From NCBI GenBank assembly GCA_015134355.1, contig CP043978.1:198902-262901 (forward strand): a stretch of 64,000 nucleotides of DNA, written 5' to 3'. Shown here in pieces: positions 1 to 64,000 of this stretch (within the stretch, counting starts at the first letter, position 1; every line of letters begins with the position of its first letter). Source of the DNA: Candidatus Stammera capleta (GTDB lineage Bacteria; Pseudomonadota; Gammaproteobacteria; Enterobacterales; Enterobacteriaceae). Both the position numbers and the translations under genes were made by a program. The notes under the pieces were generated by a model. That model was given only the letters and a program-made list of their open reading frames with translations, made no database searches and was not told where the DNA came from.

Positions 1-258
1 GAATCAATAAAATATGGTGTAGTTAAAATTAATTTAGATACTGATATTCAGTGAAATTATTGATTAGGTATTTTAAATTATTATAAAAATAATAAGTATT
101 ATTTACAATCTCAATTAGGTAATCCAAATGGAATTTATGATCCTAATAAAAAATTTTATGATTCTAGAGTATGAATAAATAAAGGTCAAATTAATGTAAT
201 TAAATATATTTCTAATATTTTAAATATTTTAAATTGTAAAGATTTATTAAATTATTAA
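1..258 (+). CDS. fbaA: Fructose-bisphosphate aldolase class II, C-terminal part (5' end outside window)
   Basis: Frame 1 with TGA=W gives ESIKYGVVKINLDTDIQWNYWLGILNYYK...DSRVWINKG. This is colinear with the remembered E. coli FbaA C-terminus (ESIKYGVVKMNIDTDTQWATWEG...PRVWLRAG). All three conserved Trp are TGA (52-54, 61-63, 172-174). Stop TAA at 256-258. Confidence 0.9.
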
Positions 259-295
259 ATTTTTATTTAATTTTATTTTAAAATATTATTGTAAT

Positions 296-1642
296 TTATT
301 TACCAGCTACTTGTATATTTGATACTAAAATTGAACCAGTTCTAATTTTAGAGTTTTCATTTATATCATTACTCATATATTTAATATTTTTAAATAATTT
401 TATTAAATTTCCTGATATTGTAATTTCATGTATTGGATATTTTATTTTTTTATTTTTTATTAAAAAACCTGAAGCTCCTTTAGAGAATAATCCATTATTA
501 ATATTTATTCCTTGTCCTAATAAATTATTAATTATAATACCATTTTTAATTTTTTTAATTAAATTTTTAAATGTAATATTACAGTATTTATTTTTTATAA
601 AACATCAATTATGTATTCCTCCTGAATTAAATGTATTTTTTATATTTAATTTTTTAGATCATTTATAATTTGATATTCAAGTTTTTAATATACCATTTTT
701 AATAATTGTATATTTTTTTGTATTAAGTCCTTCATTATCAAATGGTTTTGATCCTATTCCTTTATATAAATATGGATTTTCAATTATATTTATTCATTTT
801 GGTAATATTTTTTTATTTAATTTATTTAACATAAAAGATGTTTTATTATATATGTTAGATGCTTTTATAGATTTATATAAATAATAAAATATTTCAGAAG
901 TTATTTCTTTTGTAAATATTACTGAATATATTTTAGTTTTTATTTTTTTTGGATTTAATTTATTTATTAATCCTTTATATGTTTTTATTGGGAGTTTATG
1001 TGTAAAATGTATTAAATCTAATAATTTATGTTTATGTATATATTTAGTATTATATGTCATATTATTAGATTTTTTATAAAAAATATTATTTATAATAATA
1101 TAATCTTGTGTTAAATAATATTTCATTAAATTATAATTATTATATATAAAATTATAATATTTATATTTTTGAAATATTACTCCATCACTTAAAATATTTT
1201 TATTATAATTTAATGAATTTAATTCTATGTTTTTACATAAATTAATTATATTATTAGTATTTATATGATCATTAAATATTAATCCTAAATTTTTTTTATA
1301 TTTTTTTTTAAATAAATAATTAGAAGGTAATTTATTATATTTATCTTTAGATATAAAATCTATAGTGTTATTAAAATATTTTATAAATTTTAAAATAGTT
1401 TTTTTTTTAAAATTATTACATATAAAATTACATTTTTTATTATTTTTATATATATTTATATTTATTATTTGATCTTTTTTGAATTCTATATTTTCTATTT
1501 TTTGATTTTTTATTTTTATTTCTTTTCCTATATTTACTTTAATATTAATTTGTATTTTAGAATTTATATATGATTTTATAAGTTTAAAAGTTTTATATAT
1601 TTTTTTTTTATAATATTTTTTAATTTTTTTATTATTATACAT
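296..1642 (-). CDS. pmbA: PmbA/TldE (TldD/PmbA-family metalloprotease component)
   Basis: ORF-track piece 794..1642 reads on through in-frame TGA codons (794-796, 677-679, 659-661) to TAA at 296-298. The C-terminus ...[29 protein letters not shown]...[12 protein letters not shown] matches E. coli PmbA (...[25 protein letters not shown]...MKIAGQ). Length 448 aa versus 450. Confidence 0.85.
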
Positions 1643-1734
1643 ATTTTAAATTTAAAAGTTTTATAATATATAATATATAATTATATTATATGTATCTTTT
1701 TAATCAATAATTTATTATATTTATATAAATAAAA

Positions 1735-1739
1735 GGGAG
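1735..1739 (+). promoter_or_regulatory. Shine-Dalgarno-like GGGAG upstream of ppa
   Basis: GGGAG lies 12 nt upstream of the ATG at 1752, one of the few G-rich motifs in this spacer. Confidence 0.4.
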
Positions 1740-1751
1740 ATAAATATATAT

Positions 1752-2288
1752 ATGAATTTTAATAATATTCCTAGTGGTTTGAATATACCTGATGATATAT
1801 TTACAATAATAGAAATTTCTTATGGTAATTCTTTGGTAAAATATGAAATTAGTAGAAAATATAATAATATTTTAGTAGATAGATTTATAAATACTCCTAT
1901 ATTTTATCCATTTAATTATGGTTATATTAATAAGACTTTATCTAAAGATGGAGATTGTTTAGATGTTGTTTTATTATGTGATTATAGTATTAATACAGGG
2001 ACTGTAATTCATAGTCGTCCTATTGGAGTATTAAAAATGGTAGATGAATTAGGTAAAGATGACAAAATAATTGCTGTACCAAATTATAATATTTCTAGTG
2101 AATATAATAATATTCATGATATTTCTGATATATCTAAATTAATTTTAAGAAAAGTACATTTTTTTTTTAATAATTATAAATTTTTAAATAAAAATAAATG
2201 AGTAGAAATTGATAATTGGTATGGTATTGATGAATCTAAAAAGTTAATTAATAAATCATTTTTAAATTATAAAAAAAATAATATATAA
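1752..2288 (+). CDS. ppa: Inorganic pyrophosphatase
   Basis: MNFNNIPSGLNIPDDIFTIIEIS...FYPFNYGYINKTLSKDGDCLDVV...GVLKMVDELGKDDKIIAVP matches E. coli Ppa throughout. The TGA at 2199-2201 falls on the conserved W of GKWVKVEGW, and the next W is TGG (2217-2219). Stop TAA at 2286-2288. Confidence 0.95.
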
Positions 2289-2303
2289 TTTATATTATAA
2301 ATT

Positions 2304-2351
2304 TATACCTTCTTAGTATTATTTAATTTAAATAATAAATAAGAAGGTATA
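2304..2351. terminator. Hairpin between convergent ppa and ybhL (candidate bidirectional terminator)
   Basis: A 12-bp stem (2304-2315 TATACCTTCTTA pairs with 2340-2351 TAAGAAGGTATA) sits centred between the ppa stop (2288) and the ybhL stop (2362). It holds the only G/C-containing pairs in the spacer. Confidence 0.5.
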
Positions 2352-2361
2352 TTTATATATA

Positions 2362-3108
2362 TTAGTTTTTTTCTTCTTTTTCTTTATCTTTATCTTTATA
2401 TGATTTAATTCCTAGTATTTTTAGTATTAATATATATATATTAATAAAATCTAAATATAATAATAAAGCTCCTAAAATAGAATATTTTTTTAATTGATCA
2501 TTATGTTTTATGATTATATTATTTCCTATTTCTTTTAATTTTTGTGTATCTCATGCAGTTAATATAGTAAATATAATTATACTTATATATGATGTAACTC
2601 AAATAATATATGAATTTTTTAATCATATATTTATTATACTTGATAATAATATACCTATTAAACACATTAATGATAAATTACCTATTTCAGTAAGATCTTT
2701 TTTAGTTATATACCCTCAAATGCTCATTATAGCAAACATTATACTTGTTATAAAAAATGATGTACATATTGATGAATATGTATATATTAAGAATATACTT
2801 GATATAGATAATCCATTTAATATAGAATATATTATAAATAATATAATTGCTGTTTTAGCAGTTAATTTATTAATTGAATTAGATAATATTAAAACTATCA
2901 TTAGTTGTAATATTAATAATATAAAAATAAAAAATTTATTTAAAAATATTAATTCTAATATAAATGGTATTTTAATAGAATATCATGCTGTAATTGCAGT
3001 TAATAAAAGTCCAAATGACATTCATGCATATACATTACTAATATAATTAGTTAATGTATTTTTATGTATTAATTCAAAATAATTATTATTATAAGAATTT
3101 TTTTTCAT
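2362..3108 (-). CDS. ybhL: BAX inhibitor-1/YccA-family inner membrane protein (YbhL-like)
   Basis: Read with TGA=W: MKKNSYNNNYFELIHKNTLTNYISNVYAWMSFGLLLTAITAWYS...TAWDTQKLKEIG...KKYSILGALLLYLDFINIYILILKILG. This is colinear with E. coli YbhL (...VYGWMTVGLLLTAFVAWY...TAYDTQKLK...RKYSILGALTLYLDFINLFLMLLRIFG). AGGAAA precedes the ATG at 3108. Confidence 0.85.
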
Positions 3109-8311: not shown

Positions 8312-9532
8312 TTAATAATTTTTTCCTTTAAAAATTTTTTTAGTTTTTTTCTTAATTTTTTTTATGATATAATTTAAATATTTTTGTTTATTTTTATTTT
8401 TAATATTATTTCTAATATTAATTTTATTTAAATTTATTTCTTGATCACCACATATTATTATATAAGGTATCTTTTGTAAAGTATATTTACGTATTTTAAA
8501 ATTTATTTTATTATTTTTAATATCTATTATAGATCTTATATAATTATATTGATTTAGAATTTTAAATATTTTTTTACAATATAATATATGTTTCTTAGAA
8601 ATATTTAATATAACTATTTGTATTGGTGTTAATCATATAGGTAATCATCCTTTATTTTTTTCTATTAATATACCTATAAATCTTTCTAAAGATCCTAATA
8701 TAGCTCTATGTATTATAATAGGATATTTTTTAATATTATTTCTATTTATAAAATAAACTTTTAAATTTTTAGATAAATTAAAATCTATTTGTATAGTACC
8801 ACATTGTCATTTTTTATTTTGTTTGTCTTTTATTAAAAATTCTATTTTTGGTCCATAAAATGCTCCATCATTTTTATTTATTTTAAATTTTATATTTTTT
8901 TTAATTAAAATATTTATTAATTGATTTTCTATATTATTTCATTTTTTTTTTTTACCTAGATATTTTTTAGGTCTAGTTGATATATATATATATATTTTTT
9001 TTAATTTAAATATTTTATATATTTTTTTAATAATAAATATACATTCTAATATTTCTTTTTTTATTTGTTTTTTTGTACAAAAAATATGTGCATCATCTTG
9101 AGTAAAAGATTTAGTTCTCATTAAACCATATAATGAACCTGAAGGTTCATTTCTATGACATATACCAAATTCAGATATTTTAATTGGTAAATCTTTATAT
9201 GATTTTACATTATTTTTAAATATTTCTATATGTCCTAAACAGTTCATAGGTTTTAAACATAATTTAATATTTTTTTTAATATAAAAAATATATTTTTTAT
9301 AATTTTTTCAATGTCCACTATTTTTTCATATTTTTTTAGGTATTAAATATGCTGTTTGTACTTCTTTATATTTAAATTTTTTTATTTTTTCTCTAATTAA
9401 ATTTTTTATTATATTTATTATTATTAATCCATTATTTGTTCAATAAATAATTCCAGGATTATTTTTTTGAATATGAAATATTTTTATATTTTTATTAATT
9501 ATTCTATGATCATTTATTTTAAATTTATTCAT
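8312..9532 (-). CDS. thrS: Threonine--tRNA ligase, catalytic and anticodon-binding domains only (N-terminal TGS/editing half absent)
   Basis: Starts [35 protein letters not shown], which aligns near residue 240 of E. coli ThrRS ([29 protein letters not shown]). It continues through [12 protein letters not shown] and [27 protein letters not shown] to ...[10 protein letters not shown]...KGKNY. An in-frame TAA at 9566-9568 limits any upstream extension. Length 406 aa versus 642. Confidence 0.85.
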
Positions 9533-9626: not shown

Positions 9627-10157
9627 ATGTCTTTTAATAATCATTTAATTTTTTCTTTATTTTGTTGTATAATATTTATAAAATATTTTTGTTTGAAATA
9701 TAATATTAATTTATTAATTTTAATTTTATTTAGTTTATTTTCTAGTTTATTACCTGATATAGATCATATTAATTCATTTATTGGTAATAAATTTAAAAAT
9801 ATTTCTTATTTTATATATAAAATTTTTGGACATAGAACTATAACACATAGTTTAATTATTTTATATTTATTATATATATTAATATTTAATATTAAATTTT
9901 TATTTTATAATATTAGTATTAGCATTAAATATGGTGTATTTATAGGATATTTAAGTCATATATTAGCTGATATGTTAACTATTAAAGGTATAAATTTTTT
10001 TTGACCTTTTAAAATATATTTTAAATTTCCTTATTTTAATATAAAAAATAGAAAATTAGAATATTATATTTGTTTATTTTTATTATTTTTATCTATTTTT
10101 TTAGAAAATATAATTTGTATATTAAAAATCTTATTTAAAAATATATATTTAATTTAA
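9627..10157 (+). CDS. ydjM: YdjM-family membrane-bound metal-dependent hydrolase
   Basis: LLPDIDHINSFIG, FGHRTITHSL and GYLSHILADMLTIKGINFFW(TGA)P match E. coli YdjM (LLPDIDHPKSFLG, FGHRGFTHSL, GYLSHILADMLTPAGVPLLWP). Confidence 0.8.
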
Positions 10158-10159: not shown

Positions 10160-13100
10160 ATGTTTATATTATATCAATCTAATGATTTTAAAATATTAAA
10201 GAATATGTTTTTATATGTTTTTAAAAAAAAACAATTTAATAATTATAATGATAATATAATTTTAATATCTAATAATAATGTTTCTTTAAATTTAAAAATA
10301 TTTTTTAGTAAATATTTAGATATATTTGCTAATTATAAATTTTTATTAACTGCTAAATTTATATGAAATTTATGTAAATTATTTTTAAAAGATATATCAG
10401 ATATTAATTATTTTAGTAAAATTAATTTATTTTTTGTAATATTAAATATTTTACCTAAATTAATTAAAAATAATAATTTTTTAAAATTAAAAAAATATTT
10501 AAAAAATGATTTAAATTATATTAAATTATTTGATTTATGTTATAAAATATCAGATTTATATGATAAATATTTAGTTTATAGACCTTATTTATTGATTAAC
10601 TGAGAAAATAATATATTAGATAATAATATTAATGATGATAATCAAATTTGACAATGTATTTTATGAAAAAAAATTATAAATTTTTATTTTAAAAAGTTTA
10701 ATTGTAAATTATATAGATCAAAAGTTTTATTTAATTTCTTAAATATTTTAGAAAAAGAAAAAAATTTATTTAAAAAATTATATAAACATATTTATATTTT
10801 TAATGTTTATAATTTACCACCTTTATATTTAGATATTATTTATTATATGTCAAAACATATTGATATTCATTATTTTTTAATAAATCCATGTAAAGAATAT
10901 TGATTTGATATTAATAATTTTATTAATATAAATAATAATTTAATAAATAATAATTATAATATATTTAATTCAAATTCATGTATATTATATTATGCAAAAA
11001 TATTTTCTGAATATTTGTATATAATATTAAATTATAAAAATATATGTGAAATAAATTATTTTAATAAATATTTTAATAAAAATATTTTAGGATATTTTAA
11101 AAAAAATATATTATATTTTTATAATAATAAGTTTAATTTTTTAAATAAATTAAAATATATAGATAATTCTTTAATTGTTAAATCTTGTTATGGTTATTTA
11201 GATGAAATTTATAAATTAAAAAAATTTTTATTAAAATTATTATTTAAATATAATTATAAATATAATGAAATAGCTATAGTTATTACAGATATTAAAAGAT
11301 ATTTATTTTATATTAATTTAATATTTTCTGATTATAAATATAAAAAAATTATACCATATTTAATTTTAGATAAATTTCATGATAATAATATATTTAAATT
11401 TTTAATAAAAATATTAAATATTAAAGATATTAATTTAAATTCATATGATTTTTTAGAATTATTTAAAAATAAAATTATTTTAGAAAAATTTAATATTGAT
11501 AAAAATGAATTAGATGTTATATTAAATTTAATTAATAATATAAATTTTTTTAATAGTATTAAAAATTTAAATATTAATAAAAATTTATTTAATAAAATCA
11601 ATTATATAAATTTTATTGAAAATATTAAAAGTTTGTTATTAAGTTATTTTATAAATAAAAAATATTTTATATGAAATAATATTTATAGTTATAAATTATT
11701 AGATAGTAACTTTATATATAATATAATAGCTAAATTTTCAGATTTTATTTTTAAAATATTATATTGAAAAAATATTTTTAATAAAAAATATTTTTTTAAT
11801 GAATGAATTATTTTATATTTTAATATAATAAATGATTTTTTTTCAAAAAGTTTGATAAATGATTATTATTTTTTAAATAAAGAGTATTTAAATATTTTAT
11901 TAGATAATTATAAAATTATAAATTTTAATAAAAAAGTTAATATTGATTTTTTTATTAAAATAATATGTATTTTATTTAAAAAAAAAAATAAAAATAAGCA
12001 ATATTCAATTAATCATATTAATATTAGTTCAATTTTTTATTTGAGATCAATACCTTTTAAAGTAATTTGTATATTAGGTTTAAATTTAGATATTTATCCT
12101 AAAAATATTTTAAATTATAATTTTGATTTAATGTATTTATATCCTAAATTAGGAGATAGAAATAAAATAGAATATGAAAAATATTTATTTTTAGAAAATT
12201 TTATATTTGCTCAAGATAAGATTTATATAAGTTATATTAATATATCATTAGAAAATAATAATAAATATTTTCCTTCTATTTTGTTAGATAATTTATTAAG
12301 TTATATTAATATTAATATATATAATTTTAAAAACAAAAATATTAAAAGATTTTTTTATAGTTATAAAAAAAAATTAAATGTTAAAAATAATATTATATCT
12401 TTAAAATCTTTTTATATTTTATTTAAAAAAAGTAATATTATTTTATTAAAGGATATTCATAATTTTTGATTTAATCCAATAAAATTTTTTTTTAATAATT
12501 CATTAAAAATTTTTTTTTATGAAAATATTAGTAATAATTTAACTTATAATATAAAAGATTTTTATAATTTTAAGAAAAAAATTATTAATAGTTTATTAAT
12601 AGGTAAAAAATTTAATAAAAATTTTTATTTATATTTACAAATATTTAATTTAATACCTTTTGGTAATTTTGGGAAAATTTTTTGAAAAAATGAAAATTTT
12701 AATATAATTAAATTATTTAATTATATTAATAATATATCTTTTGATTATAAAGATTATAAGTTTTCAATTTTAATTAAAAATATTTATTTAAATGGTATTT
12801 TAAATATTAATAATAATTTAAATCATTATAAATTTTTACCTAAAAATTTAAATTTAATAGATGGTTTATTATTTTGAATAGATCATTTAGTATATTGTTC
12901 ATTAGGTTTTAATAAAAAAAGTATATTATATGGTTATAATAATTTATTTATATTTGAAAATTTAGATATATATTTATCTAAATATTTATTATATTTTTAT
13001 ATAAAAGGTTTTTTATTTGGTATTAATAATCCATTATTTTTTTTACCTAAATTAAGTAATTATATATTGTTAAATATATATAATTTTAAAATAAAAAAAT

Positions 13101-13306
13101 TATATATTAATAAAAGAATTATTAATTCAATATTTTTAAAAATAAAATATATAATAAATAATAAGAATTATAATTATTTTTTAAACGATGTTTATATTAA
13201 TTATTTAATAAAATATAATTATATAATAGATGAAAATTTAATTATTAATAATGCTAAAAAATGATTATTACCTATGTTAAAATATATAAAGATTAAAAAT
13301 TTTTAA
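10160..13306 (+). CDS. recC: Exodeoxyribonuclease V gamma subunit
   Basis: MFILYQSNDFKIL...DLYDKYLVYRPYLLINWENN...LPPLYLDIIYYMSKHIDIHYFLINPCKEYW matches E. coli RecC (MLRVYHSNRLDVL...DLFDQYLVYRPDWLAQWE...LPPVYLQALQALGKHIEIHLLFTNPCRYYW). Pieces 10160, 11015, 11852 and 13067 share one frame and are joined only by TGA. Length 1048 aa. Confidence 0.8.
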
Positions 13307-13311
13307 ATGTA

Positions 13312-16300
13312 ATGAATATTTTTGATTATTTAAATAGTTTTATAAATAAAATTAATTTAATTGAATCTTCTGCAGGTACTGGTAAAACTAATATAATTTC
13401 TTTATTATATTTAAGATTTTTATTAAATATTAATATTGAAAGTAAATATTTTTCAAATTTATTAATTAATAATATTTTAATAGTAACTTTTACTGATTTA
13501 GCTTCTTTAGAAATTAAAAATAGGATTTTAAATAATATAAGAAATTTAAAAGAATCATGTATAAATAATTATTGTATTAATGAAAATATAGATATTATTT
13601 TTAATTATATTAAAAATATTCCTAATATAGTTAATTTATTAAATCAAATAGAAAATAATATTGATTATACTTCTATATTTACAATACATGGATTTTGTAA
13701 AAAAATTATTTTTAATAATTTTATAGAATTTAATATAAGTTATAATTGTAAAATATTATCTGATGAATATAATTTAATTTATGAGTTAACTATTTGTTAT
13801 TGATATAATAATTTATCTTTATTAAAAGAAAATATATTATTAATAATATTAAAATATTGATCTAATTATAATTTTTTATTTAATGATATAATTAAAATTT
13901 ATAATTTTAATAATATTAAATGTAATTTTAAAAAAAAAATTTTTAATTCTATTGAAAATTGTTATTTTAGTATTTTAAATTATATAATTTTTTTTAAAAA
14001 AGAGTGATTATTAAATAATAAATATTTATATAATTATTTATTAAAATTTAAAGATAAAATGTTTAGTTTATTAGAATTAAAAAATTTATTTTTACAGATA
14101 AATTTTTGAGCTAAAAGTAAAACTTTAGATTTTTATATTCCTAAAATTTTATATAAATTAAGATATAAATTTTTTTTATATAATTATAAATATACTTATT
14201 TTAATAAAGATTATACATTATTATATTTAGATTTTTTATTATATAAGTTAAATGATTTATATAATTATATATTATTAGATTGTTTAAAATTTATTAAAAT
14301 AAATATTAAATTAAGAAAAAAAGAAAAATTATTAATAAGTTTTGATGATTTAATAAATAAATTTAATAAATTTTTAAATAATAATAATAATTTATTTTTG
14401 ATTAATTATATTAGAAAAAATTATCCTATAATTTTAATAGATGAATTTCAAGATACTGATATTAATCAATATTGTATTTTTAAGAAAATTTATATTAAAA
14501 ATAGTTCTAAATTTAAAACAAAAATGATATTAATTGGTGATCCTAAACAATTAATATATTCTTTTAGAGGAGCTAATATTTTTAGTTATATGTATGCTAA
14601 AAAGAATATTAAGTATATATATACTTGTAATATAAATTGACGTTCTTCTTATTATTTAAATAAAAGTTTTAATTATATATTCACTAGAGTAAAAAATTTT
14701 TTTTTATATAAATATATAAATTATGTAAAGTTAAAATCTGATTTAAATAATAAAAATTTATATATATTAAAAAATAATTGTATTGATAATTCAATAAAAT
14801 TTCATATATTTAAAGATTTGAAATATAAAAATTTAAAATTTAATTTAGCTAAATATTGTGCTATTAAATTAATAAAATTATTAAGTAATAAAAACATATA
14901 TATTTTAGATAAATATAAAAATAAGCGTAATTTATATCCTTCTGATTTTTGTATATTAGTTTATAGTAATACAGATATTAAAATAATTTTAGATGTTTTT
15001 AAGAATTTTAATTTACCTATTTTTTATAATTATACTAAAGATAGTATATTTAATACGAAGGAATCTGAAGATATTATATATATATTAAAATGTATATTAT
15101 TTCCTATATCTAAGATTAATATTAGAAATATATTATTAACTTCTTTGTTTGGTTATAGTATTTTAAATATTAATTTTTATATTGATAATGATAACTATTT
15201 TAATAAATTAATAGAGGAATTTTATTTATATTATGATATATGGAATAAATTTGGTATTTATTCTATGATTAAATATATTATTAAAAAAAAAAAAAAAATA
15301 GTTAATAATATTTTAAATAAAAATGAGTATATAAATAATATTTTACATTTATCCGAAATTTTACAAAATATATATTTAAAATTAAATGATAAATTTTTAT
15401 TATTAAAATGATTAGAAAATAAAGTAATTAATAAGAAAAATATATTTAAAAAAAGATATTATATTAGATCAAATTTTTATAATAAAGAATCAATAAATAT
15501 TTCTACTATACATAAGTCTAAAGGTTTACAATATAATATTGTTTGATTACCATTCTTAATAAAATTAAAAATTAATAATAGATTTTATTATTTTTATAAT
15601 CGTAAAAATTTAAGTTTTAATTTAGACTTATATAAAACATATTATGGAAAATTTTTAATGATGGAAGAAATAATTTCTGAAGAAATTAGACTGTTTTATG
15701 TGGCAATCACAAGATCAATATATCAATGTAATATTTTTATTTATGATTATGATATTAATAATAAAATTTTTTATAGTAAATATATTAATAATATTTTAGG
15801 AATAAAAGAAAAAAATAGTTTTATAAATTTAAATAGTTATATTAAATCTAATATTAATTATAAATATATTTTAATTAAATTTTTAAATTTATATAAATAT
15901 ATTAAGTATAATAAAAATATATTTTTTAATATAAAAAAATCAAAAAAGAAAGTTTTAAAATTTAAAGAATTTGTCATTAAAAGAAATAAATTTATTTTAA
16001 ATTATTCTAATATTAAAAAAAAAATTAGTTATTTAAATAATTATATTAAAAATAATATAAATAATAATAATTTTTTATTAAGAGGTAAAAATATAGGTAA
16101 TTTTTTTCATAATATTATTGAAAATATTAATTTTAAAAATTTTAATTTTAATATAAAATTTTTACTATTTAAATTAAATGAATTTAATATAGATAAAAAA
16201 TATTTTTTTTTAATTAAAAATATTTTATTTAATTTATTAAATGTTAAATTAAATAATTTAAATATAAATTTATGTAGTTTAAATAAAATTAATATTTATA

Positions 16301-18612: not shown

Positions 18613-19323
18613 TTAAATTTTTTTAATTATATAAATACAAATTAACTCTATATCATTTCATAATAAGTTATTAAATAGTTTGTAATTTTTTTCATATTTA
18701 TAAAATATTTTTAATATTTTAATTATATTAATTATATTATTAAATTTATTTATATTTTTAATAAAATTTTTAAATATTATATTTAAAATTAAAATTTTAT
18801 CTATATTTTTATTTTTAATTTTATTAATTATATAAAATATATCATTAATTTTTTTTTTATTAATAATTTTAATAAGTTTATATATTATTTTATTTATATT
18901 ATTTTTAAATATATATTTATTTTTTTTATTAAATTCTATTAAAATAATATTTTTTTTATTTATTATTAAATTTTTTATATTATATTTTATTTCAAAAATG
19001 AATATAATATATATGTTTTTTTTAAAGTATTTAAATATATATTTTTTGATTAAATAATTAATATTTTTAATATTTTCTATTATATTTATTATAAAAATTT
19101 TATTTTTTGAAATTATATTTTCATTTATTATTTCTTTAATAATTAAATTTCAATTAAATTTTTCTTTTATAAAAAAATTATATATTAATATATTTTTATG
19201 TATATAATTAATTTTATTTATTATATATTTTTTATATTTATATTTTTTATTTATATTATTACCTAATATATAATATATATTATATTTTATTTTATTATTT
19301 TTAATTAAATTATATTTTTTCAT
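18613..19323 (-). CDS. holA: Probable DNA polymerase III delta subunit, shortened
   Basis: An intact 236-aa frame, checked codon by codon, with two TGA codons (18658-18660 and 19150-19152). It lies immediately downstream of leuS, as in the E. coli order leuS-lptE-holA. Similarity is weak: YYILGNN versus YLLLGND, and NWNLIIKEI...KNKIFIINIIEN versus DWNAIFSLC...SRQTLLLLLPEN. Confidence 0.45.
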
Positions 19324-19330: not shown

Positions 19331-21859
<2,529 letters not shown>

Positions 21860-21949
21860 ATTTGTTTATTTATTTTTATATTTAATTTATAATTTATATA
21901 TTAAATGTTTTAAAATTTAATTATTTTAATATATATTTATATATAAAAA

Positions 21950-23509
21950 TTAATTATAAATTATATTTTTATTAATTTTTATATTTTGAAATTTATTAAA
22001 ATTATCTTTTTTATTTATTAGTTTTAATTTTTTTTTATATTTATGTTTTTTTTTATATTTAATTCTTAAAATATAATAATTTGGTGTTTGAATATTTTTA
22101 TTAGGTACTATTTTAGTTTTAATATTTTTTTTTTTTATATTATATAAGATATTTTTTTTTTTTTTTAATATATAATATGCTATATTTATAGGTAAAATTG
22201 CATGTATTTCTTTAGTATTTTTTTTTAATGATTTTTCTTGTATAGTTCGTAAAATTAAAAGAGACAATGATTTATTATCCCTAATTATACCACTTCCTTT
22301 ACATCTTGGACAAATATAATAATTTAATTCTTTTAAAGATGGATTTAATCTTTGTCTAGACATTTCTAATAATCCAAATTTTGATATATATCCAATTTTT
22401 GTTTTTGCTTTATCTTTATTTATTATTTTTTTAAATTTTTTTTCAACTTTTTTTTTATTTTTTAAAATAGTCATATCTATAAAATCTATAACTATTAATC
22501 CTCCTAAATCTCTTAATCTTAATTGTTTAGCTATTTCTTTAGAAGCTTCTAAATTAGTTTTAAATGCAGTTATTTCTATATTTTTTTCTTTTTTGTATTT
22601 TGAAGAATTAACATCTATAGATATTAAAGCTTCAGTAATATCTATTATTATAGATCCTCCTGATGGTAGTTTAACTTTTCTTTTAAAAGCTGATTCAATT
22701 TGATTTTCTATTTTAAAATAAGTAAATAGTGGTATTTCTTTTTTATAAAATTTTATTTTATTTAATATATTTTTTTTACCTATTTTTTTAATATAATTTA
22801 TTGATGATATATAAATTTTATAATTATCAATTATTATTTCTTTTATATCATTGTTTAAATAATCTCTAAATATTCTTGTAAATATGTTATTTTGTTTATA
22901 AATTAAATAATTTGATTTATTATTTTTAAATTTTTTTTTAATATATTTTCAATTTTTTAATTTTTCATATAAATCTAATTTAAATGTATTTATTGATTTA
23001 CCTAATCCTGAAGTTCTAATTATTATTCCCATATTTTTAGGTATTTTTAATTTTTTTATAATCTTTTTTATTTTTTTTCTTTTTTTTCCTTTAATTTTTT
23101 TAGATATTCCTATTGTATTATTATTTTTATTTGGCATTAGTATTAAATAATTACCTATTAAATTTATAAATGTTGTTAAAGAAACTCCTTTATTATATAT
23201 TTTTTCTCTTGTAATTTGTATTATTAATTCTTGTCCTTTATATAAATTATTTATATTTTTATTTTTTTTATTAATGAAATATTTAGGTGAAATTTCTTTT
23301 AATGGTAAAAATCCTTGTTTAGGTTCTCCATAATCTATAAATACTGCTTCTAGACTAGGTTCTATTCTTATTATTTTACCTTTATATATATTATATTTTA
23401 TTTTTTTATATTTATTATTTTCTATATTTAAATCATATAGTTTTTTATTATTAATTATTGCTATTCTTAGTTCTTCTTTTTGAGAAGCGTTTATTAACAT
23501 TCTTTTCAT
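21950..23509 (-). CDS. rne: Ribonuclease E, catalytic N-terminal half only
   Basis: MKRMLINASQKEELRIAIINNKKLYDLNIE...NIYKGKIIRIEPSLEAVFIDYGEPKQGFLPLKEI matches the E. coli RNase E N-terminus. The Zn-link CPRCKGSG is present. Length 519 aa versus 1061. It is divergent from rluC, as in E. coli. Confidence 0.9.
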
Positions 23510-23630
23510 ATAATTTAATATTTATTTTAAATAGTTTATTAATTAGTATATAATAATTAATATATTATTAATTAGTTATTATTTTTATAATTTTTTATAT
23601 AATTGCATTTTAAATTATAATTATAGGAAT

Positions 23631-24596: not shown

Positions 24597-24599
24597 GAG
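24595..24599 (+). promoter_or_regulatory. Shine-Dalgarno AGGAG for rpmF
   Basis: AGGAG lies 10 nt upstream of the ATG at 24610. Confidence 0.6.
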
Positions 24600-24609
24600 T
24601 TAATTTTAT

Positions 24610-41645: not shown

Positions 41646-41646
41646 T

Positions 41647-41719
41647 CTCCTCCGACTGGATTCGAACCAGTGACATACGGATTAACAGTCCGTTGTTCTA
41701 CCAACTGAACTACAGAGGA
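41647..41719 (-). tRNA. tRNA-Asn (anticodon GUU), no encoded CCA
   Basis: The reverse complement TCCTCTGTAGTTCAGTTGGTAGAACAACGGACTGTTAATCCGTATGTCACTGGTTCGAATCCAGTCGGAGGAG folds as a cloverleaf with anticodon loop CUGUUAA. It is close to E. coli tRNA-Asn. It starts 1 nt after the gyrB stop. Confidence 0.9.
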
Positions 41720-41809
41720 ATATATTTAAATATTATATCTTTTATATATTGTTTTGTCAAAAATTTTAGTTAAAATTTTAAATATTTTATAGTATAATAT
41801 ATTATTAAA

Positions 41810-41900
41810 AGTGGGATGTCTGAGTGGTTTAAAGAGCATGCTTGGAAAGTATGTATACTTAATAATAAAAGTATCAAGGGTTCAAATCCCTTTCCCACTA
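41810..41900 (+). tRNA. tRNA-Ser (anticodon GGA), class II with long variable arm, no encoded CCA
   Basis: The acceptor AGTGGGA pairs with TCCCACT. The anticodon stem CATGC/GTATG carries loop TTGGAAA. The variable arm ATAC...GTAT has an AT-rich loop, and the T-arm is AAGGG TTCAAAT CCCTT. It resembles E. coli tRNA-Ser(GGA). Confidence 0.85.
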
Positions 41901-41942: not shown

Positions 41943-42200
41943 ATGGTAATTATAAGATTATCTCGTTATGGTAGAAAAAAAAAGCCTTTTTATCATATTA
42001 CTGTTTCTGATAATAGAAGATTTAGAAATGCTAAATTTATAGAAAAAATAGGTTTTTATAATCCTTTTTTATCATTAAATAATAAAAATAGTATTTCAAT
42101 TGATTTAGAAAAATTTAATTTATGAATTAAAAATGGTGCTAGAATATCTTCTAGAGTAAATTATTTAATTAAAAATTATAAAAATTTATTAAAATGTTAA
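41943..42200 (+). CDS. rpsP: 30S ribosomal protein S16
   Basis: [25 protein letters not shown] resembles E. coli [25 protein letters not shown]. The TGA at 42123-42125 is read through to TAA at 42198-42200. Confidence 0.9.
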
Positions 42201-42233
42201 TTTTTATATTATTATTAATATTATTATTTAAAT

Positions 42234-42926
42234 ATGTATATAAATATAATTACTTTTAATCCTAATTTTTTTAAATCTGTTTTTAATAATGGTTTAATAA
42301 GTAAAGCTATTAAAAATAATATTGTAATATTTAATTTTTTTAATCCTAGATTATATTTAAAAAAAAATGATAAAAATATAAATGATAAAATTTATGGAGG
42401 TGGCCCTGGTTTGCTTATTAAACCTGAACCTTTATATTTATCTATTAATAAAGCTAAAAATATATCTGATAATTATTGTATAATTTATTTATCACCTCAG
42501 GGAGATATTATCAATAATAATATTTTAATTAAATTATTAAAATATAAATCTATAATTTTTATATGTGGTCGTTATAGTGGAATAGATGAAAGAATAATAA
42601 ATAAATATGTTGATTTTGAATTATCAATAGGAGATTATATTATTAGTTGTGGAGAAATTTCATCTTTAGTAATTATTGATATATTAGTAAGAAATTTACC
42701 TGGAATTATAAATAATTTTTCTAATAATTATGATTCATTTAATTTTAATGGTGGTTTATTAAGTTGTTCTAATTATACTAGACCAAAAATTTTTAATAGT
42801 ATGAAAGTTCCTAGTGTATTATTATCTGGAAATCATAAAAAAATTTATAAATGAAGAATTAAAAATTCTTTTAAAAATACTTTAAAAAAGAAATCTTATT
42901 TATTTAAAAAAATATATGAAAAATAA
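42234..42926 (+). CDS. trmD: tRNA (guanine37-N1)-methyltransferase
   Basis: MYINIITFNPNFF, YGGGPGLLIKPEP, GRYSGIDERI, SIGDYIISCGE and the C-terminal SGNHKKIYKW(TGA)R match TrmD. Confidence 0.9.
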
Positions 42927-44352: not shown

Positions 44353-44361
44353 ACTAAAATA

Positions 44362-44435
44362 TTGCGGAGGTTGGATTTGAACCAACGACCTTCGGGTTAT
44401 GAGCCCGATGAGCTACCATACTGCTCTACTCCGCG
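44362..44435 (-). tRNA. Initiator tRNA-fMet (anticodon CAU), no encoded CCA
   Basis: The reverse complement is CGCGGAGTAGAGCAGTATGGTAGCTCATCGGGCTCATAACCCGAAGGTCGTTGGTTCAAATCCAACCTCCGCAA. It has the C1:A72 mismatch, and the anticodon stem-loop TCGGG-CTCATAA-CCCGA is identical to E. coli tRNA-fMet. Confidence 0.9.
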
Positions 44436-44552
44436 ATAATAATATTATATCATTTATTTATATAAAATCAAATAATTTTATATTTTTATTTAATTATTAT
44501 TAAAATTAATGTTATATTATTATATTTATAATATTAATTAATAGGTATATTT

Positions 44553-45872
<1,320 letters not shown>

Positions 45873-47272: not shown

Positions 47273-47344
47273 GCGTTCTTAACTCAGAGGTAGAGTGCCA
47301 TTTTGACGTGATGGAAGTCAGTGGTTCAATTCCACTAGAACGCA
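47273..47344 (+). tRNA. tRNA-Val (anticodon GAC), no encoded CCA
   Basis: GCGTTCT TA ACTC AGAGGTA GAGT G CCATT TTGACGT GATGG AAGTC AGTGG TTCAATT CCACT AGAACGC A gives a full cloverleaf with anticodon GAC. Confidence 0.9.
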
Positions 47345-55468: not shown

Positions 55469-56851
55469 TTAATTTAAGTTTTTTAGTATAGGAAATAATA
55501 TAATTTCTTTAATTGATGTACTATTTGTTAAAATCATTAATAATCTGTCTATTCCTATTCCTACACCAGCTGTAGGTGGTAATCCATATTTTAATGCTTC
55601 TATATATTCTTTATCATATTTATAATTTTTATTAATTAATTTTTGTTTTATAAATCTTTTTTTTTGTTCTTTATAATCATTTAATTCTGAAAATCCATTT
55701 GCTATTTCTATTCCTCCTATAAATAATTCAAATCTATCTGCTATTTTATTATTTTTTTTATTTTGTAAAGAAAGTGGTGATATTTCTATAGGATGTTTAA
55801 TTATAAAAGTAGGTTTAATTAATTTTTTTTCTGTAGTTAATTTAAATATTTTTTCTATAATTTTTGATTTTTTTAATTTAATATTTATTTTAAGTTTTTT
55901 AGCTATTTTTTTAATTATTTTTATATTATTTAAATCTTTAATATTTTTAAAATATTTGGAATATTTGTATATTGATTTTTTTATTGATATTATTTTAAAT
56001 TTTTTATTTAAATATATTTTTTTTTTATTTATAATTAAGAAATTTTTTTTAAAAATATTATTTATTATATATATAATAATATTTTTAGTTAAATTCATCA
56101 TATTTTTATAATTTGAATATGCTTTATATATTTCTATCATAGTAAATTCTGGATTATGTGTAGTAGATATTCCCTCATTACGAAAATTTCTATTTAGTTC
56201 AAATATTTTTGTAAAACCTGATATTATTAATCTTTTTAAATATAGTTCAGGTGCTATACGTAAATACATTTTAGTATTTAATTTATTATGATATGTAATA
56301 AATGGTTTTGCAATAGCTCCTCCTGGTATATTATGTAACATAGGTGTTTCAACTTCTAAAAAATCATTATTATTTAAATATTTTCTAATTATATAAATAA
56401 CTTTTATTCTTAATAAAAATTTATTTTTTGTTTCATTATTTATTATTAAATCTAAGTATCTTTTTCTAAATTTTTTTTCCTTTTTTTTTAATTTATTATA
56501 TTTGTCTGGTAAATGTTTATATATTTTAACTAATATTTTAAAGTATAAACATTTTATTGTTAATTCATTAGTTTTTGTTTTAAATAGTATTCCATTAATA
56601 TAAATTATATCTCCTATATTAGATTTATTTATTCTTTTTATATATTTTTTACTTAAATAATTTTTTATTGCTAATATTTGTATATTTGATTTTATATCTT
56701 GTATATTAAAAAAAATATTTTTTTTCATAATTCTTTTAGATATAATTCTACCTGAAATATATGTTTTAATTTTTAATGTATTAATTATATTTCTAGTTTT
56801 ATTTTTAAAATATTTTATTATATTAGATATATTATTTATTTTTTTAAACAT
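55469..56851 (-). CDS. lysS: Lysine--tRNA ligase (class II)
   Basis: FRKRYLDLIINNETKNKFLLR, FLEVETPMLHNIPGGAIAKPFITYHN, MYLRIAPELYLKRL, NRNFRNEGISTTHNPEFTMIE, DRFELFIGGIEIANGFSELND and GLPPTAGVGIGIDRLLM are colinear with E. coli LysS. The N-terminus is about 45 aa shorter. Confidence 0.9.
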   Translation of the reverse strand: MFKKINNISNIIKYFKNKTRNIINTLKIKTYISGRIISKRIMKKNIFFNIQDIKSNIQILAIKNYLSKKYIKRINKSNIGDIIYINGILFKTKTNELTIKCLYFKILVKIYKHLPDKYNKLKKKEKKFRKRYLDLIINNETKNKFLLRIKVIYIIRKYLNNNDFLEVETPMLHNIPGGAIAKPFITYHNKLNTKMYLRIAPELYLKRLIISGFTKIFELNRNFRNEGISTTHNPEFTMIEIYKAYSNYKNMMNLTKNIIIYIINNIFKKNFLIINKKKIYLNKKFKIISIKKSIYKYSKYFKNIKDLNNIKIIKKIAKKLKINIKLKKSKIIEKIFKLTTEKKLIKPTFIIKHPIEISPLSLQNKKNNKIADRFELFIGGIEIANGFSELNDYKEQKKRFIKQKLINKNYKYDKEYIEALKYGLPPTAGVGIGIDRLLMILTNSTSIKEIILFPILKNLN

Positions 56852-56860
56852 TTTAAATAT

Positions 56861-57421
56861 TTATATAATTTTTTTATTAATTGAATTTTGTATTTTATTT
56901 AAATTATTATATTTAATTAATTTTTTTATATAAAATATACATTTTTTAATTGATTTTTTAATTAAATTTTTTTCTAATTTATTTGGTTTAGATATCACAA
57001 AATTATTTAAATTATTATTTTTAGGTTTACCTATACCAATTCTTAATTTGTAGAAATTATTTTTTTTAATATATTTTATAATATTTTTAATACCATTATG
57101 TGTGCTTATTTTATTAATATTATTTTGAATTTTACAATTTCCGGGTAATATATTTATGTCATCGTATACTATTAATATATTTTTACTTTTTATATTTAAT
57201 TTATTTATTATTTTAAATATTAATTTTCCACAATTATTAATATATGAATTTGGAGTATATAAAAATATTAATTTTTTTTTTATTTTTTTAATGTAAATTT
57301 TATTTAAAATAATTTTATTTAATTTTAAAAATTTTTTAATAAATCATATACCTACATTATGTCTAGTATTAAATAATTTTTTATTTTTATTACCTAGTCC
57401 AATTATTAATTTAATATTCAT
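56861..57421 (-). CDS. pth: Peptidyl-tRNA hydrolase
   Basis: MNIKLIIGLGNKNKKLFNTRHNVGIW(TGA)FIKKF..., YDDINILPG, THNGIKNI and FYKLRIGIGKP match E. coli Pth ([31 protein letters not shown]...HDELDLPPG...GHNGLKDI...FHRLRIGIGHP). Length 186 aa. Confidence 0.85.
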
Positions 57422-57553: not shown

Positions 57554-58615
57554 ATGAAAAAAGAATTAGAAATCAAATTTTTTAAATTAGAAAAAAGATT
57601 ATTATATTTAAAAGATAAGTTATATTATAAAAATATTATTAAAAATGATAATTTTAATTATAATTTATTTAAAGAATATAATATTAATTTAAAAATTTAT
57701 AATATTTTTAATCAATATAAAAAATATATTAATGAATTAAATTTATTAGATGAGTTAAATAATGATAAAGAATTATATTCTTTAATTAAAGAAGAAAAAT
57801 TAAATTTAAAAAATATTATTAAAAATTTAGAAAATAAATTAGAAAATTTTTTTTTATCTAAAAAAATAGATAATAATGATAAACTAAATATATATTTAGA
57901 GATTCATGCTGGTACAGGTGGTAATGAAGCTAGTATATTTGTTTCAGATTTATTTAAAATGTATGTTAAATATTGTGAAAAAATGAAATGAAAGGTAGAA
58001 TTAATAAATTTTAATAATAATAATTGTAAAGGATATAAATATATTATATGTAAAATAATAGGTAAATATGTATATAAAAAATTAAAATTTGAGTCTGGTG
58101 GTCATAGAGTACAAAGAATACCTAAAACAGAATCTAAAGGTAGAATACATACTTCTACTTGTATAGTAGCTGTAATTCCTGTAATACCAAAAATTAAATT
58201 ACCTATAATTAGAAATGAAGATATTAAAATTGATACTTTTAAATCTTCTGGAGCTGGTGGTCAACATGTAAATACAACTGATTCAGCAGTTAGAATAACT
58301 CATATTCCTACTGGTTTAATAGTAGAATGTCAACAGGAAAGATCTCAACATAAAAATAAATCTAAAGCTTTAGAAGTATTAAAGTCTCGTATTTATAATT
58401 TAGAAGTTAATAAAATTAATAAAGAAAATAGTATTAAAAAGAAAAATTTGTTAGGTACAGGATTTAGAAATGATAGAAATAGAACTTATAATTTTGTTCA
58501 AAATAGAGTAACAGATCATAGAATAAATTTAAATATATATTCATTAGATAAAATTTTAAATGGTAATTTAGATTTATTATTAAATTCCTTATTAAATAAT
58601 TTAAATAATAATTAA
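57554..58615 (+). CDS. prfA: Peptide chain release factor 1
   Basis: [27 protein letters not shown](TGA 57989-57991)KVEL and [23 protein letters not shown] are present, the latter with the RF1-type P-x-T tripeptide PKT at 58121-58129. [23 protein letters not shown] carries GGQ. Length 353 aa. Confidence 0.9.
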
Positions 58616-58619: not shown

Positions 58620-59462
58620 ATGAAAATTAAAAATTGATTAAATAAAGTTTGTTTATATAGCAAAACTAATTTATATATATATAAAGAATGTTATATATTT
58701 ATAGAATTTTTATTAAAAAAAGATCGTATTTGAATAGAAATTAATATTAATTTTAAATTGAGCTTAAAAAATATAGAATATTTAAATTTATTTTTAATAA
58801 GGAGATTAAGAGGTGAACCAATTGCTTATATTTTAAATAAATATTATTTTTTAAATATTTCATATATAATTTATCCTGATATCTTTATACCTAGATTAGG
58901 AACTGAATATATGGTAGATTATGTTATTAAATTAATTAAAAAAGAAAATTTATTAAATATATTAGATTTAGGTAGTGGTACTGGTGTAATAGCTTGTACA
59001 ATATCTAAAAATTGTCCAAATACTAATATTTGAGCATTAGATAATAATATTTTATCTATAAATTTAATTAAAATTAACTGTTTGAAATTAAATATAAATA
59101 ATATTAATTTATTAAAGAGTAATTGATTTTTGAGTATTAAAAATAAATTTAATTTTTTTAATTTAATAGTTTCTAATCCTCCTTATATTTGAAAAAAAGA
59201 TATATGTGTAAATAATAATGATTTACGTTTTGAATGTAGAAATTCTTTATTATCTAAAAGTAAGGGTATTGAAGATATTTTATATATTATTATATCTTCT
59301 TGAAATTATTTAGATAATAAAGGTTGATTAGTTTTAGAACATTCTTTATTAAATTTTAATAAAATAATTTATTATTTTAAAAAATATTATTTTAATGTTT
59401 ATACATATAAAGGTATTAATAATAATTATAGATTTACAGTAGGTCAAAAAATTTTTAAATAG
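58620..59462 (+). CDS. prmC: Release factor glutamine N5-methyltransferase PrmC (HemK)
   Basis: It starts 4 nt after prfA. RRLRGEPIAYILNK, the SAM motif ILDLGSGTGVIA and the catalytic VSNPPYIW(TGA) are present. It has nine internal TGA codons. Stop TAG at 59460-59462. Confidence 0.85.
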
Positions 59463-61261: not shown

Positions 61262-62935
61262 ATGATTAAAAATTATTGTAATTTATTATCTTATAAAGAT
61301 ATTAATAAAAATGTTAAGTTATGTGGTTGAGTACAAAATATACGTTTTTTAAAAAATATTATTTTTTTAGATTTTAAAGATTGTAGTGGTAATTTACAGT
61401 TAGTTATTTTAAATAATAATAAAAAATTATGAAATTTATCTAAAAGTTTAACTAATCAATCATGTATAAAAGTATATGGAAAAGTAAATAAAAAAGATTT
61501 TAATAGTATTGAAATTTTAGTAAATAAATTAATTATATTTAATTATTCTAAATTATTACCTTTAGATATTTTTAAAAAAAATTCTGAAAAAATAAAGTTT
61601 AAATATCGTTATTTAGATTTTAGAAATGATAAGGTACTTAAAATATTTAAAATAAGATCTAAAATTAATAATATTATACATAACTTTTTTAATAAAAGAA
61701 ATTTTCTTAATATAGAAACTCCTTTTTTAAATAAATCTTTTAATGAAGGTTCTAAAGATTTTTTAGTTCCTAGTAGTTTTCATATTGGAAAATATTATTC
61801 TTTACCTCAATCTCCCCAAATTTTTAAACAATTATTGATGATTGGTGGTATAGATAAGTATTATCAGATAGTTAAATGTTTTAGAGATGAAAATTTAAGA
61901 TCTGATAGACAACCGGAATTTACTCAGTTAGATGTAGAATTATCTTTTATTAAATTTAATTTTATTAAAAAGTTAATTAATAAATTAATTATTAAAATTT
62001 GATTAAATATTTTAAATGTTAATTTATCTAGAAAAATTAAGATTATTAAATATAATGATTGTTTAATAAGATATTGTACTGATAAGCCTGATTTAAGAAA
62101 TCCTATAGAATTTAAAAATGATATATATAAATTTCTTATTATTAATAAAATTTTAAATGATAATATTGATAATATAATTTTATATATATTAATATTAAAT
62201 AATAATTTAAAATTTAATTTAAATGATTTTATTATATTTTTATCAAATAAAAATTTATATGAAATTATATTTTTAAAAGTTAATGATTTTAAAAATTCTA
62301 AATTTATTTATGAATGATCTTATAATTATTGAAAATTAAGTGATGATTTAACTCAAAATTTATTATTTTATTTAAAATCTTCTATAAATTGTATATATTT
62401 TATATTAATAGGTAAAATTTTATTATATTCTTATTTATTAGAAATAAGAAATTTCTTTTGTAATTATTTTAAATTATTTAATAAAGAAAAATTTATTCCT
62501 TTATGAATTAAAGATTTTCCTATGTTTTATTATGATAAATTTAATAAAATAAATTCTTTTCATCATATTTTTACTAAACCTAAAATATTAAATATTAAAG
62601 AATTAGAATATTGTAATGATTATACTAAATTATTAGCTAATTCATATGATTTAGTAATTAATGGTTATGAAATTGGTAGTGGATCAGAAAGAATTAATGA
62701 TTATATTTTACAAAAAAAGATTTTTAGTATTTTAAAAATTAATAAAAATATTATGTATAAAGATTATGGATTTTTTATAAATTCTTTAAAGTATGGTACT
62801 CCTCCTCATATGGGTATTGGTATTGGATTGGATCGTATTATTATGTTATTAACTAATAAAGATAATATTAGGGAAGTAATAGCTTTTCCTAAGACTACAT
62901 CTGGTAAATGTTTTGTTACAGATGCTCCAGATTAA
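61262..62935 (+). CDS. aspS: Aspartate--tRNA ligase
   Basis: VKLCGW(TGA)VQNIRFL, YRYLDFRN, LPQSPQIFKQLLMIGGIDKYYQIVKCFRDENLRSDRQPEFTQLDVE, GSGSERIND and GTPPHMGIGIGLDRIIMLL are present. Length 557 aa. Confidence 0.9.
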
Positions 62936-62945
62936 TTTTAATTAT

Positions 62946-63437
62946 ATGAAAAGAAGAATAATAGGTATAGATCCTGGTACTTATTGTACAGGATATAGTG
63001 TTTTAGAAATTAATAATTTATATTTAAATAATTTAAATGATAATATATTTTTTGTTTCAAGTGGTTGTATAAAAAGTAATTCTAAAATTTTTTCTTTAAG
63101 ATTAAATAAGATTTATAATTATATATTTAATATATTTATTTTATTTAAACCTTTTGAATTAGCTATTGAAAAAACTTTTTTATTTAATAATTTGAATTCA
63201 AGTTTTAAATTAAATCAAGTTAATGCAATTATATCTTTAGCAGCTGTTAAAAATTTTATTCCTATTTATGAATATAATATTAATAAAATTAAAAATTCTG
63301 TATTTAAGAGAACGAATGTAAATAAAAAGTATATTAATGTATTTTTTAAGAAATTTTTTAATATAAAATCTAATTTAGATTTTAATATAACTGATTCTAT
63401 AGCTGTTGCTATGTGTCATATTAATTTAAATTATTAA
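62946..63437 (+). CDS. ruvC: Crossover junction endodeoxyribonuclease RuvC
   Basis: MKRRIIGIDPGTYCTGYSVL...SSGCIKS...LAIEKTF...ITDSIAVAMCH resembles E. coli MAIILGIDPGSRVTGYGVI...GSGCIRT...FAIEQVF...AADALAIAITH. The ORF-track start at 62913 is an artefactual extension into aspS. Confidence 0.8.
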   Translation: MKRRIIGIDPGTYCTGYSVLEINNLYLNNLNDNIFFVSSGCIKSNSKIFSLRLNKIYNYIFNIFILFKPFELAIEKTFLFNNLNSSFKLNQVNAIISLAAVKNFIPIYEYNINKIKNSVFKRTNVNKKYINVFFKKFFNIKSNLDFNITDSIAVAMCHINLNY

Positions 63438-63524
63438 TTTTAAATATTATTAAAAAATATTTGATTTAAATTTTATATATGATAATCTATTTATATATTA
63501 TATTTTATTTTAAAGGTAATATTG

Positions 63525-63737
63525 ATGTCTACAAGAGTAAAAGGTAATGTTAAATGGTTTAATGAATCTAAAGGCTTTGGTTTTATTACTCCAGTTAATG
63601 GTGATAAAGATGTTTTTGTTCATTTTTCAGCTATTCAAAGTAGTGGATTTAAAACTTTAACTGAAGGTCAATCTGTTGAATTTGAAATTACAAATGGTGC
63701 TAAGGGTCCTTCTGCTACAAATGTTGTTCCTTTATAA
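63525..63737 (+). CDS. cspE: Cold-shock-domain protein CspE-like
   Basis: [70 protein letters not shown] is very close to E. coli CspE ([69 protein letters not shown]). The Trp here is TGG. Confidence 0.9.
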
Positions 63738-63805
63738 AATTAATATATAGTTAATTTTATATAATTTAAAGTTTTTTAAATTATATTTTAAATTTTATTT
63801 AATTA

Positions 63806-63874
63806 GTGAATTATTTAAATATAATAAATAACTTAAATTTTTTAAATTTAATTATATATATTTAAATAATTCAC
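63806..63874. repeat. Perfect 18-bp inverted repeat with a 33-nt spacer, downstream of cspE
   Basis: 63806-63823 GTGAATTATTTAAATATA is the exact reverse complement of 63857-63874 TATATTTAAATAATTCAC. The spacer itself contains a smaller palindrome (TAAATT...AATTTA). A T-rich tract follows. Confidence 0.6.
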
Positions 63875-64000
63875 ATTAATATTTATTAGTTTTTATTCAT
63901 TTTATTTTATTATTTTATTTTATTTAATTTATCAAATATTTTATTATTATATTAAGAAAAATTATAATTTTTATATTAAGTTTTATTATTTTATTAAATA

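Follow-up and report, generated by a model that had tools for sequence, protein, structure and literature searches.

How is UGA read in a sequence whose conserved genes are cut into pieces by in-frame TGA under the standard code? We investigated this in a 64,000-nt stretch of Candidatus Stammera capleta DNA (GenBank CP043978.1, positions 198,902 to 262,901 of the forward strand; hereafter, the window, meaning the whole stretch analyzed). Stammera belongs to Enterobacterales and is a gut symbiont of tortoise beetles (cassidine leaf beetles); it lives outside host cells and degrades pectin. An original prediction, made from the letters alone, held that UGA encodes Trp throughout the window and took the source to be an enterobacterial member of the tiny insect symbionts, which is right. 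The reassignment is likewise upheld, because TGA aligns with Trp columns of E. coli proteins and is conserved among strains, standard-code lineages have TGG at the same sites, stops are TAA or TAG only, and the ancestral slot of prfB no longer contains that gene. The window very probably is the terminal 64 kb of a Ca. Stammera capleta strain chromosome that uses genetic code 4, with UGA as Trp and with UAA and UAG as stops read by release factor 1 (RF1).

The G+C content of the window is 13.0%, slightly under the published range for Stammera genomes (13.9–20.4%), and genes cover 93.6% of its 64,000 nt. When only TAA and TAG are taken as stops, long open reading frames (ORFs) tile the whole window; adding TGA as a stop breaks them up. 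A set of 55 confident genes, built from homology to fetched E. coli K-12 loci, Pfam hits, and gene calls on orthologous Stammera loci, comprised 19,909 codons under translation table 4. It contained 149 in-frame TGA codons spread over 42 of the 55 genes (76%); the breakage by TGA first described for about 35 genes was thus real, but the number of genes affected is 42. Stop codons were TAA in 52 genes and TAG in three, with no TGA, as had been claimed. When TGA was read through, the ORF ends differed by only a few residues from the C-termini of the E. coli proteins; a TGA stop is thus not required by any gene in the window. The 19,909 codons were free of in-frame TAA and TAG, compared with 1,968 and 3,049 TAA in the two other frames. 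TGG, as anticipated, is still in use for Trp, at seven codons:

2217–2219: ppa
15241: recB
21557: leuS
26784: sufE
39750 and 41121: gyrB, two codons
63555: cspE

We then rendered each TGA in the ORFs as X for tblastn alignment with the orthologues of E. coli K-12. Among the aligned TGA codons, 90 of 114 (79%) lay opposite an E. coli Trp, whereas Trp occupied 77 of 15,509 other aligned columns (0.5%), giving a binomial P of about 1e-152 for TGA on Trp columns against this background. All six aligned TGG codons also faced Trp. The individual sites named in the original prediction fared well: 12 of 12 coordinates checked are TGA on the strand given, and the 11 sites alignable to K-12 orthologues (the ydjM orthologue was left out) all fall on a conserved Trp. 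Furthermore, the ratio TGA/(TGA+TGG) was 0.955, within the 0.938–0.992 spanned by eight other pairs of A- and G-ending codons (for example, AAA/AAG 0.965, GAA/GAG 0.962, TTA/TTG 0.976, and AGA/AGG 0.959). Since this ratio is indistinguishable from those of other NNA/NNG pairs, the A+T pressure acts on TGA and TGG as on any two synonymous codons. No read-through context was detected around TGA, and the base 3' of it was distributed as after any codon. Judged from these sequence data, UGA in the window is an ordinary Trp codon, synonymous with UGG (genetic code 4).

The load of TGA per gene varies, and the following genes and gene ends illustrate its range:

19331–21859, minus strand: leuS, the most TGA-rich gene, with 19 in-frame TGA, of which 17 align to Trp of E. 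coli LeuS
10160–13306, plus strand: recC, with 12 in-frame TGA, of which 11 fall on Trp of E. coli RecC
58620–59462, plus strand: prmC, encoding the release-factor glutamine methyltransferase, with 7 in-frame TGA
63525–63737, plus strand: cspE, whose single Trp codon is TGG (63555–63557), as in every Stammera genome compared
28083–28091, minus strand: 3' end of sufD, reading TGA ACT TAA
36136–36147: 3' end of rnpA, reading TGA AAA ATA TAA

Eight in-frame TGA are found in recB, seven in thrS, and six in aspS. Under table 11, the longest fragment of leuS would be 180 of its 842 codons. At the ends of sufD and rnpA alone do TGA as stop and TGA as Trp give nearly equal proteins; both genes run on from TGA to TAA, as the original prediction had noted.

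Comparison with other Stammera genomes extended these observations. When the GyrB of the window was used to scan the GTDB species representatives, one locus was returned, in CP144782.1 (a metagenome-assembled genome of Candidatus Stammera capleta), at 74% identity. For PykF, an exact-sequence look-up gave no record. Five NCBI Stammera chromosomes encode a CspE 100% identical to that of the window, and in blocks of 9–10 kb these chromosomes and the window are collinear at 75–86% nucleotide identity. In strains 63–82% identical in protein, TGA was kept at 25 of 31, 18 of 20, 17 of 20, 14 of 18, 14 of 16, and 11 of 18 orthologous sites, with occasional swaps between TGA and TGG. A sequencing or assembly artefact as the source of the TGAs has a negligible probability, and we found nothing in its favor: an independently assembled Logan contig from SRR10017631 matches window positions 21638–24960 at 99.94% identity over 3,323 nt with the TGAs kept, and the same TGA sites recur in more than eight independently assembled Stammera genomes. 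The reads of the window strain are thus publicly available, in SRR10017631.

These results also bear on the view that the TGAs are nonsense mutations and the window belongs to a decaying genome full of pseudogenes. Such a view could appeal to an extremely reduced, A+T-rich genome in which thrS (406 aa), rne (519 aa), and yidC (265 aa) are among the genes that have become shorter, but it is at odds with coding frames free of TAA and TAG while other frames hold thousands, with the placement of 79% of aligned TGA on Trp, with TGA sites kept across strains differing at 18–37% of residues, and with homology that continues past each TGA to a normal C-terminus. The genes hit include essential ones, namely leuS (19 times), thrS (seven), aspS (six), and prfA. 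We regard this explanation as improbable in the extreme.

To follow the codon further back within the clade, we took the region orthologous to 54.8–63.7 kb of the window from five more genomes, using orthologues of the protelomerase gene described below as handles. CP144787.1, CP144771.1, and CP144793.1 belong to the standard-code lineage of the gTranslate preprint (10.64898/2026.05.24.727570). These basal genomes share with the window the gene order around lysS-pth-prfA-prmC-argS-aspS-ruvC, but, unlike the window, they lack in-frame TGA. At 11–12 of 17–18 window-TGA sites they have TGG, and at none of them TGA, and prfB still lies between their pth and lysS. Their prfB encodes the SPF and GGQ motifs, and its Trp codons are TGG. 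Another genome, CP144837.1, is TGA-using, with TGA at 11 of 18 window-TGA sites. It also has prfB (1959–3035 of the locus), encoding 359 aa with SPF and GGQ intact, in which the conserved Trp codons 137, 148, and 307 are all TGA; therefore, synthesis of its release factor 2 (RF2) would depend on UGA read-through.

RF2, the product of prfB, is the only factor recognizing UGA. Two features of the window are relevant here:

57554–58615, plus strand: prfA, with no other class-I release-factor gene present in the window
56852–56860, minus strand: spacer of 9 nt between lysS (55469–56851) and pth (56861–57421), the ancestral position of prfB

The prfA product is closer to RF1 of E. coli (47.6% identity) than to RF2 (33%); it has GGQ at residue 235 and, at residue 190, a PxT motif of the RF1 type (PKT). 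The gene itself holds one TGA, at codon 146 (57989–57991), on a conserved Trp. We did not find prfB in the 64-kb window or at the ancestral slot between pth and lysS, and RF1 was the sole factor seen. The gene order is prfB-lysS in E. coli and pth-prfB-lysS in CP144787.1, CP144771.1, CP144793.1, and CP144837.1, whereas prfB is absent between pth and lysS in CP144785.1, in five other TGA-using genomes, and in the window. As far as this locus can be read, prfB has been cleanly deleted from its ancestral slot in the window strain.

Several observations weigh against UGA as a plain Trp codon in an RF2-free cell and need to be set beside the evidence above. With respect to the identity of the amino acid, 24 of the 114 aligned TGA codons are off Trp (Phe five, Arg four, Cys, Leu, and Ile two each, two gaps, and seven single residues). 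The most atypical case is the following site:

44604–44606, plus strand: eno codon 18, a TGA at the conserved Asn of DSRGNPTVE, giving GWPTVE

This TGA replaces a nearly invariant Asn of enolase, and it is also present in CP144782.1 (at about 15514–15516 of the locus), a strain about 71% identical in protein. If UGA stood for another amino acid, namely Gly (code 25), Cys, or selenocysteine, the few alignments to other residues (one Gly, two Cys, four Arg, five Phe) are what such a reading could draw on, yet 90 of 114 lie on Trp and the standard-code sisters have TGG at most of the sites compared. Gly was found at 1 of 114 aligned TGA, and Cys at 2 of 114; moreover, 149 sites in 42 genes are incompatible with selenocysteine that depends on a selenocysteine insertion sequence (SECIS), and published surveys report neither tRNA-Sec nor selB in Stammera. 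Among the residues other than Trp are Arg, Cys, Leu, and Gly, whose codons are one base from TGA (CGA/AGA, TGT/TGC, TTA, and GGA), which fits ordinary missense change to Trp. Another amino acid at UGA thus has hardly any chance of being correct. Pseudogenization, code 25, selenocysteine, and artefact were all excluded, on account of the absence of breaks by TAA or TAG, the position of TGA at Trp sites, the 1 and 2 of 114 alignments, and the independent assemblies.

The remaining points concern decoding and termination. The absence of prfB covers 64 kb and the ancestral locus of a genome of about 0.25 Mb. Of 49 published Stammera assemblies, 15 have a prfB, and about 10 of these 15 come from strains that use TGA. 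No tRNA-Trp gene was detected in the window (ARAGORN and Rfam, also at a relaxed threshold of E ≤ 0.1) or in 13 Stammera loci (ARAGORN), and the CCA anticodon is known from papers on other Stammera strains. The window has four tRNA genes, none with anticodon UCA:

41646–41720, minus strand: tRNA-Asn (GTT)
41810–41900, plus strand: tRNA-Ser (GGA)
44361–44436, minus strand: tRNA-Met (CAT)
47273–47344, plus strand: tRNA-Val (GAC)

One might suppose from the prfB survey, from the full-length CP144837.1 gene with SPF and GGQ, and from the TGA lying one or two codons ahead of TAA in sufD and rnpA, that UGA is ambiguous, being read as Trp within genes while a remaining RF2, its gene lying beyond the window, ends translation at UGA in some places. 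However, no gene in the window requires a TGA stop and the prfB slot has been cut to 9 nt. The closest relatives, at 82% protein identity and including the reference CP024013.1, lack prfB at the pth-lysS locus, and the reference genome as a whole was reported prfB-negative in a published survey. In addition, with 19 TGA in leuS, even modest termination per codon would abolish the protein. An ambiguous UGA is therefore very unlikely, and no observation in the window, which is about a quarter of the genome, asks for it.

As for the tRNA, the Stammera genomes surveyed in the literature have tRNA-Trp(CCA) in all cases and tRNA-Trp(UCA) in none, and the former has a canonical 5-bp anticodon stem. 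The original prediction had expected a UCA anticodon, which is probably wrong for this clade because the published surveys find only CCA. It had also proposed that an intact prfB together with a CCA-only tRNA-Trp would speak against the reassignment, but this test would misfire, since the clade is CCA-only and, in CP144837.1, TGA encodes Trp although a full-length prfB is still present.

We propose the following explanation. Extreme A+T mutation pressure turns nearly every NNG codon into NNA, and TGG has given way to TGA at the same 95–96% rate as AAG to AAA and GAG to GAA. With RF2 gone, as seen for the window and the ancestral locus, nothing would compete at UGA. A single tRNA-Trp, with the CCA anticodon and normal 5-bp anticodon stem of the published surveys, may then read UGA through near-cognate C34–A3 pairing, which would suffice because no release factor competes there. 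The comparison within the clade backs a likely order of events, from the standard code with prfB, through a TGA-using state with a UGA-containing prfB (CP144837.1), to deletion of prfB (the window); an RF2 like that of CP144837.1 would throttle its own synthesis before a deletion such as that in the window.

UGA as Trp is shared with other reduced genomes, in which decoding differs. Candidatus Zinderia insecticola (Betaproteobacteria, 13.5% G+C) resembles Stammera in its UGA assignment, the loss of prfB, a tRNA-Trp with CCA, and extreme A+T content, but it belongs to a different class and has an independent origin of the code; the anticodon stem of its tRNA-Trp(CCA) is 4 bp long, a feature proposed to allow this tRNA to read UGA, whereas that of Stammera has 5 bp. 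Hodgkinia cicadicola, Nasuia deltocephalinicola, and the Mycoplasmatales also read UGA as Trp and lack RF2, but they carry a cognate tRNA-Trp(UCA), which Stammera does not. Providencia siddallii PSAC (PMC10540940) is a leech symbiont; like Stammera, it belongs to Enterobacterales and has only tRNA-Trp(CCA), and its prfB holds an in-frame UGA, like that of CP144837.1. PSAC represents an early stage, with UGA in 20% of genes and some genes still seeming to stop at UGA, in contrast to the end stage of the window (76% of genes affected, prfB deleted). It is conceivable, and we suggest it with some reserve, that Stammera reassigned UGA to Trp with neither an anticodon change nor the 4-bp stem of Zinderia, which would constitute a third kind of decoding, reached by way of a prfB dependent on UGA read-through. 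Near-cognate reading might by itself suffice once the cell is free of RF2, or the body of the tRNA might have undergone a change of the Hirsh type.

The reassignment itself is not new, because the handful of tiny insect symbionts to which the original prediction referred already includes Stammera. Later papers (PMC10540940, PMC8629427, and bioRxiv 10.1101/2023.12.12.571295) credit UGA as Trp (code 4) in Stammera to Salem et al. (2017); it was recovered by Codetta (2021), was used to annotate 50 Stammera genomes, and has been tabulated for 49. Both prfB loss and a CCA-only trnW have also been published. The window agrees with published Ca. Stammera capleta in UGA as Trp, very low G+C content, prfB loss (as seen at the ancestral locus), identical CspE, and shared TGA sites; UGA occurs in 76% of its genes, compared with about 62% published for the reference. 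Its best match among the NCBI genome loci fetched has 86% nucleotide identity. The present finding is a correct rediscovery that adds another strain and no new phenomenon. The UGA-containing prfB of CP144837.1 and the clean prfB deletion scar of the window are small additions, neither of which we found stated for Stammera in the literature examined.

Several other features of the window were observed. ThrS (8312–9532) has 406 aa compared with 642 in E. coli, RNase E (rne, 21950–23509) has 519 compared with 1061, and YidC (35320–36117) has 265 compared with 548. From conserved operons, rimM is missing between rpsP and trmD (42200–42234), recF between dnaN and gyrB (39199–39237), and ptrA between recC and recB (13306–13312). 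Despite such shortening and loss, a complete recBCD is retained. Two further ORFs with in-frame TGA have no Pfam hit:

18613–19323, minus strand: ORF of 236 aa downstream of leuS, at the position of lptE-holA in E. coli
44047–44352, plus strand: hydrophobic ORF of 101 aa between truA and the tRNA-Met gene

The right end of the window (63738–64000) is the spacer after cspE. Just beyond this end, 0.3–0.45 kb past cspE in other Stammera chromosomes, lies a perfect palindrome whose core consists of TGTAACATATTATATAAATATATA and its mirror image. Related palindromes were located in the following loci, and lineage-specific substitutions in them are mirrored in both arms:

10543–10702: locus L018
10377–10521: locus L020
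10503–10578: locus L021 (CP024013.1)
9786–10017: locus L038
9696–10063: locus L039

In six assemblies of 2024 described as circular, a scaffold gap of NNNNN lies exactly at the palindrome. In two of the genomes, CP144771.1 and CP144793.1, the palindrome arms on the gap side are 116 and 125 nt long and run into the telK coding sequence; these arms read as a fold-back of the kind produced by reading around a hairpin end. Older assemblies stop at the palindrome, and all four Logan contigs with this CspE, from four runs, end within 180–380 nt downstream of cspE. The gene next to the palindrome encodes an intact TelK-type protelomerase (match to PDB 2V6E, E = 6e-93) that keeps the motifs around the catalytic residues, including YKQF. 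In TelK, this motif presumably holds the active-site tyrosine. The Stammera protein shows 39–44% identity to the protelomerases of N15 and phiKO2 over an aligned 32–50% of its length and is conserved across Stammera genomes of 212–314 kb.

The G+C and A+T skews flip at the palindrome junction and not at dnaA (36673–38088), which lies inside the window about 27 kb from the chromosome end. On the plus strand of the window, G+C skew is positive throughout and cumulative skew is essentially monotonic, with no switch at dnaA-dnaN-gyrB; therefore, the replication origin is not next to dnaA. Given the palindrome, the mirrored substitutions, the gaps, the fold-back arms, the contig ends, the TelK-type gene, and the skew flip, Stammera chromosomes are probably linear with hairpin telomeres. 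Within the library searched, we found no paper linking Stammera with telomeres. The telomere palindrome was not found in Stammera plasmids (up to 4 mismatches). Past the palindrome, CP024013.1 (262.7–271.2 kb) contains two complete plasmids end to end, of about 2.7 kb and 5.6 kb, which are full-length matches to pStCm2 and pStCm1. Because Stammera plasmids lack the telomere palindrome, this looks like simple concatenation and not integration. The position of cspE also differs among lineages, which have it on different chromosome ends: it follows telK, inverted, in CP144787.1, CP144771.1, and CP144837.1, whereas the window and its close relatives have it on the other arm, after ruvC, with a partial second copy at the end of the other arm in CP144837.1.

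In practical terms, table 11 would shatter 42 of the 55 genes in the window, and the sequence must therefore be gene-called with table 4. For studies of how a code change becomes fixed, all three of its stages are available among Stammera genomes: the standard code with prfB, a TGA-using state with a UGA-containing prfB, and a state in which prfB is deleted.

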